From NCBI RefSeq assembly GCF_003334385.1, contig NZ_QOWN01000025.1: DNA of 64,000 bases. One strand, given 5' to 3'. Numbering within the stretch: position 1 is the first letter of the stretch; every line of letters begins with the position of its first letter. A program made the translations under genes and the position numbers. This DNA is from Escherichia coli (GTDB lineage: Bacteria > Pseudomonadota > Gammaproteobacteria > Enterobacterales > Enterobacteriaceae). Positions 43,366 to 56,594 of the stretch are shown here, piece by piece. The notes under the pieces were generated by a model. It searched no databases and was not told the DNA's origin. It saw only the letters and a program-made list of their open reading frames with translations.

Positions 43366-43801
43366 GTTTCATCCTGTCCATTATGATGCGCACGGTCGCC
43401 TGCGTTTACCCTTGCTCTTCTGGCTTGTGCTATTGCTTCAGGCGCGAACCTGGGTGCTGTTTGTCATTGCCGGTGCGTCGCGCGAGCAGGGTACTGCGCT
43501 GCTAAATCTGTTTTATCCCGATCACGATAATTTCTGGCTGGGGCTGATTCCTGGCATTCCGGCGGTGCTGGCGTTTTTGTTGAGCGGTCGGCGGGCTACG
43601 TTTCCTCGCACCTGGCGTGTACTCTATTTTCTGTTGCTGTTGGCGCAGGTGGTTTTACTTTGCTGGCAACCGTGGCTGTGGCTGAACGGTGAATCCGTTA
43701 GCGGTATCGGTCTGGCGCTGGTAGTGGCGGATATTGTGGCGTTAATCTGGCTGCTGACCAATCGACGTTTACGCGCTTGTTTTAATGAAGTAAAAGAATA
43801 A
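43352..43801 (+). CDS. yfeZ: inner membrane protein YfeZ
   Basis: ATG 43352 ([15 protein letters not shown], 149 aa); hydrophobic helices; overlaps ypeA 3' end by 14 nt. Confidence 0.8.
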
Positions 43802-43861
43802 CGGCACTTTTTGGTGAATTTGCACTCCAAGCAACGTTATTGAATAACCAAAGGAAGTGAC

Positions 43862-44448: not shown

Positions 44449-45432
<984 letters not shown>

Positions 45433-45512
45433 GCGTTTCTGATTCATTGATTAAAGGCCAGGCAGTAACATTACTGACTGGCCTCAGATTGTTGACCAAG
45501 TGCGCGTTGTAC

Positions 45513-45628
45513 ACGCCGGATGCGGCGTGAACGCCTTATCCGGCCTACGAAATCGTGCTAATTCAATATATTGTGGGCTCCACGTAGGCCTGATAAGCGT
45601 AGCGCATCAGGCAGTTTTGCGTTTGTCA
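45513..45628. repeat. REP-linker-REP (RIP/BIME-like) element, copy A
   Basis: GCCGGATGCGGCGTGAACGCCTTATCCGGCCTAC - AAATCGTGCTAATTCAATATATTG - GTAGGCCTGATAAGCGTAGCGCATCAGGC; flanked by near-identical 21-nt hairpin motifs at 45463..45483 and 45645..45665. Confidence 0.7.
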
Positions 45629-45671
45629 GCACTCTCAGACCAGCCAGTAACATTACTGACTGGCCTTTTTA

Positions 45672-46976
45672 TTACTTCTGCTTTAACGCCGCATACACCT
45701 GATCAACTACCCAACCATAAGTTGCAATCGGCAACTGACCGCTTTCGAACATATTGGGATTCTTTTGCGGATCGGCAACCGGCGAATGTGGCTTGTTGCT
45801 TAACATCACAATCGTCATATGATTCACCGGATCGATAACGGTCACCGTTCCGGTCCAGCCAGTGTGACCGTAGGTTTGCGGGCTTGCCAGCGTGCCAAAC
45901 GTCGGCGTCATGGTGGCATTACCATTCACGCGCCAGCCGAGGCCAAAAGTGGCATCTTCCTTAGAGCTGGTGGTGAACATCTTCACCGTTTCCGCATTGA
46001 ACAGCTGCACATCACCATAGCCCCCGCCGTTCAGCATCGTTTGCATTAACACCGCAATATCGCCGGTATTGGAAAACAAACCTGCGTGCCCGGAAACGCC
46101 GCCCATCGAATAAAAGGCTTTTTCATCGTGCACCTGACCCCAGAGAGTGGAGGTGCGGATATTCGGGAAATGGATCACGCCATCGCGGGTATTGCCGTTC
46201 AATTCCGTGGCGGCAATTTGTTGCGGTTTAAAGCCTTTCAGCAGCGGGTTAAATACCGTATGTGTCAGGCCGAGCGGGCGATAAATCGACTCTTCAACAT
46301 AGCGGTCAAGCGGCTGACCGGTAACCGACTCGACGATAAATCCAAGCAGCATATAATCGACATCGCTGTAGATATGTTTGCTGCCGGGCTGATATTCCAG
46401 CGGCGTGCGCTTGATCATCTCCAGCGTCTGGCCTTTATCCTGGGAATATAACGCGCCCGCGACCGCTTTATTCGGGTATTGCGGATCTGCCGGGAAACCG
46501 CCGCTGTGATGCAGCAGGTCAGAAATCCGCAGGGTGTTTTTGCCTTTAATGGTGTCATTTGGACTATCGGCAAACCCCGGAATATATTTCGCAATCCGAT
46601 CGTCAGGATGCAGTTTGCCTTCGCTCATCAGCTTTTGCAGGGCGAAGTTCGTGGCGTACATTTTGGTGTTTGAGGCCAGGTCATACAGCGTCCCGGTGGT
46701 GGCTTTGACAGGCTGTTCCATCAACACGCTGCCATCGTACTTTTTCGCCGCTCCCCAGGCTTTGCGATACACAATCTGATTATCTTTAATGATCAGCAGG
46801 TTTACGCTGGGATAACCGACATCAACTTGCTGGCTAATCCAGCGATCCATCTGGTTAAGCCGTTCGACGTTAAACCCTGCTTTCTCTGGCGAGCTTTCTG
46901 TCAGAACAGGGTATTTTGCGGCGCTGACGCTACAACTAACAGCCAGCAGAGAAAGATAGAGCATTGTCCGTTTCAT
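45672..46976 (-). CDS. yfeW: penicillin-binding protein 4B (class C beta-lactamase fold)
   Basis: ORF 45672..47063; ATG 46976 gives MKRTMLYLSLLAVSCSVSA (434 aa); SxxK motif (SNTK). Confidence 0.85.
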   Translation of the reverse strand: MKRTMLYLSLLAVSCSVSAAKYPVLTESSPEKAGFNVERLNQMDRWISQQVDVGYPSVNLLIIKDNQIVYRKAWGAAKKYDGSVLMEQPVKATTGTLYDLASNTKMYATNFALQKLMSEGKLHPDDRIAKYIPGFADSPNDTIKGKNTLRISDLLHHSGGFPADPQYPNKAVAGALYSQDKGQTLEMIKRTPLEYQPGSKHIYSDVDYMLLGFIVESVTGQPLDRYVEESIYRPLGLTHTVFNPLLKGFKPQQIAATELNGNTRDGVIHFPNIRTSTLWGQVHDEKAFYSMGGVSGHAGLFSNTGDIAVLMQTMLNGGGYGDVQLFNAETVKMFTTSSKEDATFGLGWRVNGNATMTPTFGTLASPQTYGHTGWTGTVTVIDPVNHMTIVMLSNKPHSPVADPQKNPNMFESGQLPIATYGWVVDQVYAALKQK

Positions 46977-56406: not shown

Positions 56407-56428
56407 GGATTAATAGCATCGGAGACTG

Positions 56429-56543
<115 letters not shown>

Positions 56544-56594
56544 ATAAACAAAGCGCACTTTTTTAACAGTTGTTGCTGCCGACAAATGCAGTAT

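Follow-up and report, generated by a model that had tools for sequence, protein, structure and literature searches.

Results

The convergent genes yfeX and yfeW are separated, in the E. coli DNA analysed here, by two near-identical stem-loops, H1 and H2, that enclose a BIME-1-type element. The features of this intergenic region are given in Table 1 in the coordinates of the window, the whole 64,000-nucleotide stretch of contig NZ_QOWN01000025.1 on which the analysis was based.

Table 1. Features of the yfeX-yfeW region (window coordinates).
Feature	Coordinates	Strand	Basis
yfeX (porphyrinogen peroxidase) CDS, stop TAA at 45430-45432	44533..45432	+	ORF list; RefSeq annotation of identical E. 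coli sequence
A-tract AAA, kept with the left hairpin copy	45453..45455	.	Sequence; also precedes the single hairpin of empty alleles
H1, left stem-loop copy, AGGCCAGGCAGTAACATTACTGACTGGCCT	45455..45484	.	Repeat, inverted-repeat and folding analyses; comparison with empty alleles
BIME-1-type element, 152 bp	45485..45636	.	Comparison with other genomes and with other BIME-1 copies
Left inverted-repeat-like terminus, CAGATTGTTGACCAA	45485..45499	.	Inverted repeat; terminus conserved at other BIME-1 sites
Y-type REP, inverted (iREP on the + strand), ends in CTAC	45515..45548	-	Sequence; inverted repeats; sub-threshold naRNA4 match; definition in PMC3333891
Long linker (L) with IHF-consensus-like core AATTCAATATATTG at 45560-45573	45549..45583	.	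Sequence
Z-type REP, GTAG head, GTAGGCCTGATAAGCGTAGCGCATCAGGC	45584..45612	+	Sequence; inverted repeat; Rfam scan; definition in PMC3333891
Right inverted-repeat-like terminus, TTTGTCAGCACTCTC	45622..45636	.	Inverted repeat; other BIME-1 sites
H2, right stem-loop copy, AGACCAGCCAGTAACATTACTGACTGGCCT	45637..45666	.	Repeat and inverted-repeat analyses; folding
T-tract TTTTTATT, kept with the right hairpin copy, overlaps the yfeW stop	45666..45673	+	Sequence; ORF list; comparison with empty alleles
yfeW / pbp4B CDS, 434 aa, stop at 45672-45674 (complement of TTA)	45672..46976	-	ORF list; 1305 nt in RefSeq records

The two stem-loops are copies of one sequence. A preliminary description of this DNA had reported two exact copies of a 21-mer, CAGTAACATTACTGACTGGCC, one at 45463-45483 and one at 45645-45665, each in a longer imperfect palindrome and on either side of a REP-linker-REP element. 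Our reading of the sequence agrees on all three counts: both 21-mers are exact and lie on the + strand, both palindromes have 14-nt arms around a 2-nt centre, and the REP-linker-REP element lies between them. The 21-mer had no chance match in 100 dinucleotide-preserving shuffles of the window. Extending it yields a 30-nt repeat (45455-45484 versus 45637-45666) that is 28/30 identical with a start-to-start spacing of 182 nt, H2 differing from H1 by substitutions at positions 3 and 8. The overlap with the yfeW stop codon that had been ascribed to the second copy applies to its tail, TTTTTATT, and not to the repeat itself, since 45665 is the last position of the 21-mer and 45666 that of the hairpin. 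Folded as RNA, H1 and H2 reach -18.6 and -11.3 kcal/mol on the + strand and -19.7 and -20.8 kcal/mol on the - strand, where the A-tract becomes a UUUAAU tail after H1. A 47-nt inverted repeat of 81% identity, absent from the earlier account, spans 45453-45499 and 45622-45668 because the element's own ends are inverted repeats.

The element between the copies carries the signature of BIME-1. A Y-type and a Z-type REP stand in inverted orientation with CTAC and GTAG heads, and the linker core, AATTCAATATATTG, is common to every BIME-1 locus retrieved. In E. coli K-12, BIME-1 also goes by the annotations RIP and RIB. Compared by eye, the core and the IHF consensus WATCAANNNNTTR agree at 8 of 9 positions, which makes the core a predicted IHF-like site; the long linker of BIME-1 often holds an IHF site (PMC3333891). 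Judged by its sequence, the element is an ordinary BIME-1 that matches the published description (PMC3333891, PMC1187871), 152 bp long or 154 bp if a terminal T (45484) and A (45637) are counted as part of it. A permissive Rfam scan of 45509-45661 returned sub-threshold matches only, to naRNA4 (36.3 and 22.1 bits, gathering score 59.5) and, over the linker, to ES036/CssrF (27.3 bits, gathering score 37.6). Both probably reflect REP sequence similarity only, and no known RNA family accounts for the hairpin.

Two further copies of the element illustrate its range of contexts. The fepA-entD copy is about 91% identical and lacks a flanking hairpin; it is fixed in E. coli (5,346 of 5,426 genomes) and thus unusable as a filled/empty pair. 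Another copy lies within the window itself, in the cysM-yfeS intergenic region (56420-56570, - strand), and is carried by 1,383 of 5,426 genomes; it is likewise unusable as a pair, its flanks being absent from genomes without it. In a metagenomic allele of this copy (L094), a complete 30-nt hairpin, ATTTGTCGGCAGCAACAACTGCCGACAAAT, abuts the element, and relative to that allele the window copy is missing about 21 nt across the right arm of the hairpin and the left terminus of the element.

The yfeX-yfeW element is polymorphic within E. coli. Between 1,402 and 1,403 of 5,426 complete genomes (about 26%) carry the filled allele, each with one unit, and no inter-unit junction occurs in the 1,403, which is the single-copy state in which BIME-1 has been described (PMC3333891). 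The other 74% are without the element; presence/absence variation of BIME-1 among E. coli isolates has already been published (PMC1187871). The preliminary description had asked whether genomes lacking the REPs carry a single hairpin, and most do: they have exactly one, AAAGGCCAGGCAGTAACATTACTGACTGGCCTTTTTATT, and are exactly 182 bp shorter. This empty allele reads ...GATTAAAGGCCAGGCAGTAACATTACTGACTGGCCTTTTTATTAC..., a single hairpin with an A-tract on one side and a T-tract on the other, and in the O157:H7-type allele the hairpin is identical to H1. A tandem-hairpin query looked for the case named as refuting a link with insertion, both hairpins without the element, and found none among the sampled rows, whose spans were 45 nt (one hairpin), 36 nt (a partial match) or 227 nt (filled) and never 75 nt. 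Genome-wide, the hairpin occupies a median of one place per genome and two in filled genomes, with no other locus. A dispersed repeat was rejected on this ground, and because the hairpin is found nowhere else in the genome, we regard it as target DNA rather than part of a mobile element.

The neighbourhood of the locus also varies. In about a quarter of genomes, including ATCC 25922, the match ends some 45 nt beyond the single hairpin, and a hypothetical protein replaces the pbp4B annotation. Some E. coli lack pbp4B here; in one of them, SCPM-O-B-8794 (L005, 2398-2600), a different BIME lies between yfeX and murP.

Outgroups point to a single hairpin as the ancestral state. We surveyed by BLAST the region downstream of yfeX in species-representative genomes that have YfeX. 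Citrobacter sp. R56, Awk 4 and NCU1 each carry one orthologous hairpin, a perfect palindrome followed by a T-tract, and no REP, so that at the level of the genus one hairpin is ancestral. The R56 hairpin, with a U-tract behind it, has a folding energy of -28.4 kcal/mol. Salmonella enterica subsp. arizonae also has a single hairpin, a different one. A contig labelled as a Citrobacter sp. MAG (L006) has an E. coli-type empty allele and a YfeX that matches the E. coli protein at 100% identity; it probably comes from E. coli and was mis-binned into that MAG.

Within Escherichia, hairpin and element together form a 182-bp tandem unit whose copy number differs between lineages, as in a minisatellite or VNTR. 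The unit is present in 0, 1, 2 or 7.2 copies, head to tail, the array numbers coming from draft assemblies. E. whittamii has one unit in a hairpin-element-hairpin arrangement, Escherichia sp. E1V33 has two units and a final hairpin (draft assembly), and Escherichia sp. MOD1-EC7003 has seven elements alternating with eight hairpins (draft assembly), which TRF resolves as period 182, 7.2 copies and 96% identity. E. albertii retains a hairpin and the element, directly after which a deletion runs on into yfeW as far as window position 46292. E. albertii NBRC 107761 (L010, 1117-1330) has lost about 655 bp that hold the second hairpin as well as the 3' third of yfeW, and the deletion endpoint coincides exactly with the right terminus of the element. 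Direct repeats of 30 nt lying 182 nt apart can explain both loss to one hairpin and growth to two or seven units.

The insertion at yfeX-yfeW is orthologous in the Escherichia species compared. Among five of them identity is 96-98% for the element at this locus and 92-96% for yfeX; paralogous copies of the element reach about 91% at most. On this basis we treat the insertion as shared. It is either old or has spread through homologous exchange. Because four other Escherichia species carry it, the E. coli empty alleles may be secondary losses by H1-H2 recombination rather than sites that were never filled, a reading towards which we lean.

Duplication of flanking sequence extends to other BIME-1 sites. 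From 120 metagenomic stretches with the BIME-1 core we obtained 23 distinct sites with full flanks and scored the left flank of each against its right flank, with mismatched site pairs as the null (mean 6.5, 99th percentile 10, maximum 13). Direct repeats above the 99th percentile, scoring 12-26, were found at 7 of the 23, with about 0.23 sites expected; the other 16 have no clear duplication. All seven have their repeats 0-2 nt away from the ends of the element and a left copy that forms a stable hairpin (-12 to -21 kcal/mol); two of them, L090 and L100, have a partly decayed right copy. At L113, for example, a site not in E. coli and so unusable as a filled/empty pair there, AAACGCCGGAGCAATCCGGCGTT stands on both sides of the element with 23/23 identity. 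The hairpin sequence differs at every BIME-1 site.

Hairpins border BIME-1 more often than they occur further out. Of 46 windows adjacent to the element, 25 have a hairpin foot no more than 4 nt from it, compared with 7 of 46 control windows placed 60 nt further out (Fisher p = 1.5e-4). Classed by hairpin stability, with H for hairpin and E for element, the 23 sites comprise six H-E, five E-H, seven H-E-H and five with no hairpin.

Filled and empty alleles could be paired at three loci besides yfeX-yfeW, and at each the duplicated segment is the stem-loop itself. These are ysgA-metE (20-nt duplication; the filled allele being a metagenomic locus, with 0 filled E. coli genomes), yfiE-srmB (25-nt duplication; filled in 2,525 genomes) and mscK-rsmS (duplication of about 20 nt, the empty allele being diverged; filled in 3,881 genomes). 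All three are convergent gene pairs with one hairpin in the empty allele. That hairpin lies between A- and T-tracts at yfeX-yfeW, ysgA-metE and mscK-rsmS; at yfiE-srmB it has an A-tract but is followed by GAGATT, with no T-tract. At the four loci, the repeats abut both ends of the element, the empty site holds one copy, and the duplicated segment equals the stem-loop to within 1-2 nt. Across BIME-1 sites, the length of the duplication (27-30, 25, 23, 20, about 20 and 4 nt) tracks that of the stem-loop and is not the constant that a transposase would fix. No clean empty allele was obtained for the katE-chbG site. At ysgA-metE (L114, oriented), one hairpin copy reads GGGTGGCGTTGCCACCC and the other GGGTGGTGTTACCACCC, a compensatory pair of differences that leaves both stems intact and hints at selection for the structure of both copies.

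The site with the shortest repeat lies close by. The yfeZ-yfeY site has no hairpin, and only a 4-nt AACG repeat stands beside its element. This second polymorphic BIME-1 site is empty in the window (43795-43805, GAAT/AACGGCAC, the slash marking the insertion point) and filled, with the AACG repeat, in E. whittamii and Escherichia sp. E1V33. The element was located at about 640-760 in L007 and L008 and at 357-746 in L009. In MOD1-EC7003 the yfeZ-yfeY element is present in three tandem copies of period 130 with 9 nt of left flank inside the unit, an amplification that fits the flank-capturing model of PMC3333891.

Insertion has redistributed the parts of what looks like a bidirectional intrinsic terminator, to judge from the single hairpin that the empty allele places between A-tract and T-tract. 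The empty allele folds at -20.2 kcal/mol followed by UUUUUAUU on the + strand and at -20.7 kcal/mol followed by UUUAAU on the - strand. In the window, H1 is followed on the + strand by CAGAUUG and H2 by UUUUUAUU; on the - strand, GAGAGUG follows H2 and UUUAAU follows H1. A tract is thus kept only by H2 on the + strand (-11.3 kcal/mol) and by H1 on the - strand (-19.7 kcal/mol). Since the gene-proximal hairpins lack a U-tract, read-through to the distal, tract-bearing hairpin is probable, and in K-12 both convergent transcripts are likely extended by about 182 nt through the element. Such read-through would likely give yfeX and yfeW overlapping, REP-containing 3' UTRs. Full-length transcripts, in which H1 pairs with H2 around the REPs, fold at -98.8 and -105.6 kcal/mol on the two strands (z-scores -6.8 and -8.9).

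A consensus terminator scan reported no terminator in the region, whose imperfect stem falls outside what the scan can judge; the miss is probably owed to the internal mismatch and short loop. A promoter scan gave one weak promoter-like site, inside yfeX, and a literature search found no paper linking yfeX or yfeW to terminators.

Discussion

We consider it probable that a terminator hairpin shared by yfeX and yfeW was duplicated whole when BIME-1 inserted at its base. The two convergent genes would at the start have shared one bidirectional intrinsic terminator composed of A-tract, stem-loop and T-tract. A BIME-1-type element of 152-154 bp would then have inserted exactly at the base of the stem-loop, duplicating all of it (27-30 nt) to give the order A-tract, H1, element, H2, T-tract. 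The filled allele shows this pattern, with a complete stem-loop on both sides, the A-tract beside the left copy and the T-tract beside the right. Because the duplication recurs at other sites, we infer that it arose with the insertion. Recombination between the direct repeats would later have restored the single hairpin in some lineages and added units in others (two and seven in two Escherichia species). Against this account, the filled allele is found in each of the four other Escherichia species sampled, so that it is ambiguous which of the two E. coli states gave rise to the other. A further 16 of the 23 BIME-1 sites show no clear duplication, and the yfeZ-yfeY site has a 4-nt repeat only.

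This account draws together two suggestions of the preliminary description. Insertion linked to duplication of a pre-existing terminator hairpin gains support from the one-hairpin empty alleles and from Citrobacter. A target-site duplication stands in part: direct repeats abut the element at both ends, against a single copy in the empty site, but the length of the repeat is not fixed and follows the local hairpin.

The geometry of the duplication suggests how the target may be cut. One strand would be severed at each foot of the stem-loop, probably during its extrusion as a hairpin or cruciform, and the stagger then filled in. That BIME-1 integration is directed by structure in this manner, with cuts at both feet of an extruded hairpin or cruciform and a duplication as long as the hairpin, is a proposal that we make tentatively, as possible rather than probable. 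A fixed short stagger at the cruciform base, which predicts hairpin length plus 4 nt, was rejected because the duplications equal the stem-loop to within 1-2 nt.

The candidate enzyme is the REP-associated Y1 transposase, TnpAREP. Its strong in vitro cleavage motif in E. coli, GGCC/T (the slash marking the cut), lies at the feet of REP hairpins in single-stranded DNA (PMC3333891). In Escherichia sp. E1V33 the junctions read GGCC/T on both strands, each on its own strand; in the window (K-12), the top strand reads GGCC/T and the bottom strand GGTC/T, owing to a G-to-A change in H2. When junctions are read by eye, a C precedes the terminal T of the element at only about 5 of 12 sites, and the C/T cleavage rule of RAYTs, which fits yfeX-yfeW, was rejected as a general explanation since it fails at most other junctions. 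Against TnpAREP, IS200/IS605-type Y1 transposases, the family to which it belongs, are reported to leave no target duplications. In a simple model that cuts both strands at the 3' foot, one daughter chromosome would be H-E and the other E-H, neither of them H-E-H; the H-E-H product therefore calls for a 5'-foot stagger or an extra step.

The strongest competitor is a two-stage origin, which we judge unlikely as a whole. The element would first have landed beside the hairpin without duplicating it (H-E or E-H), the product that a single-strand Y1-transposase reaction at the 3' foot of the hairpin would be expected to yield. The second hairpin would have come later, by sister-chromosome exchange within the element (H-E x E-H) or by flank-capturing segmental duplication or rolling-circle-like amplification. 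One-sided sites are in fact as common as two-sided ones (six H-E and five E-H beside seven H-E-H), and E. albertii has H-E followed by a deletion. Amplification driven by TnpAREP has been proposed to be able to sequester flanking sequence (PMC3333891), and the nearby second BIME-1 of MOD1-EC7003 is amplified threefold with 9 nt of flank in the unit. The scheme nonetheless requires at least two rare events to coincide at many independent sites. It sits poorly with arrays of the form (H-E)n-H, which start and finish with a hairpin as a simple tandem duplication of H-E would not, and with a duplicated segment that equals the stem-loop to within 1-2 nt at four filled/empty sites. Nor was an H-E allele with intact yfeW seen at the yfeX-yfeW locus.

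Two other origins fare far worse. In the first, the mobile element would bring terminal hairpins of its own, and excision would leave a solo remnant behind as the empty allele; the whole 216-nt structure is indeed a long quasi-palindrome whose RNA pairs H1 with H2. We give this very little credence in view of the different hairpin sequence at every BIME-1 site, the confinement of the yfeX-yfeW hairpin to its own locus, the orthologous Citrobacter hairpin without a REP and the fepA-entD copy without a flanking hairpin. That the repeats have nothing to do with insertion, arising by chance or as independently selected terminators, seems less credible still: each convergent gene might benefit from a stem-loop of its own, but the copies agree at 28/30 positions, asymmetric loop included, the shuffles gave no match, the O157:H7-type empty allele has a hairpin identical to H1, and a similar pattern occurs at other BIME-1 sites, well above the null.

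The yfeX-yfeW element can be set beside several known systems. It resembles BIME-1 in its inverted Y-type and Z-type REPs, its conserved long linker with a putative IHF-like site, its length of about 150 bp and its extragenic position at gene 3' ends. It departs from the BIME-1 of the accessible literature, single-copy and without target duplication, in being flanked by a duplicated target stem-loop and, in two other Escherichia species, tandemly amplified with that stem-loop to two and seven units. The inverted REP doublet, GTAG heads and GGCC/T top-strand junction recall REPIN/RAYT systems, in which TnpAREP is a Y1 relative of IS200/IS605, whereas IS200/IS605-type transposition leaves no direct repeats and most other BIME-1 junctions break the C/T rule. 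REPs have been described as lacking MITE signatures (Delihas 2011, PMC3184786). Like MITEs, the element is short and non-autonomous with inverted-repeat-like ends (T CAGATTGTTGACAA ... TTGTCATCAGTCTC A) and has direct repeats of target DNA at its flanks with one copy in the empty site; unlike in MITEs, the duplication is 20-30 nt where it equals a local stem-loop and 4 nt or none without a hairpin. A duplication that varies with the stem-loop points to cuts defined by structure rather than by the enzyme. The empty allele, for its part, resembles a bidirectional intrinsic terminator in its A-tract, GC-rich 14-bp stem, T-tract and stability of about -20 kcal/mol on both strands, a likeness lost in the filled allele, which splits the tracts between the hairpin copies and leaves the gene-proximal hairpins without a U-tract.

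Among the repeats of E. coli, REP/BIME elements are the most abundant. To our knowledge, a hairpin-length target duplication is an undescribed footprint for these elements and for Y1/HUH transposases. Our search of the searchable literature found neither whole-stem-loop duplication as a footprint of BIME-1 nor co-amplification of BIME-1 with its target stem-loop; a prior description in older papers, such as Bachellier et al. 1997 (Genetics 145:551) and Gilson et al. 1991, is possible. Should the older literature already contain the duplication, yfeX-yfeW would be a well-documented example only.

A reproducible hairpin-length footprint offers a direct handle on how BIME-1 spreads, in a field where the mechanism behind REP/BIME distribution is not known and no in vivo system exists (PMC3333891). 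From the footprint one would expect insertion to be aimed at the base of an extruded hairpin. If true, it would be the first concrete in vivo signature of BIME-1 insertion, and structure-directed cutting would explain why BIME-1 lies at the 3' ends of convergent genes and transcription units. Locally, the insertion has split a putative bidirectional terminator, probably lengthened both convergent 3' UTRs and created an unstable 182-bp unit.

Intergenic DNA secondary structure is also the target of elements that insert into hairpins or palindromes, such as IS621 and IS1397, which enter REPs. REP dimers have likewise been found within palindromes in T. roseum and H. neapolitanus (Di Nocera 2013, PMC3733652). 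In those cases the palindrome is split or the REP entered, whereas at yfeX-yfeW the complete target hairpin is duplicated. The yfeX-yfeW element has itself served as such a target: E. coli KW21 (L003, 2709-3984) carries a frameshifted IS621 of the IS110 family inside it, between element positions 102 and 103, where the Z-type REP has its GTAG head, and so exemplifies the targeting of a REP by an IS.
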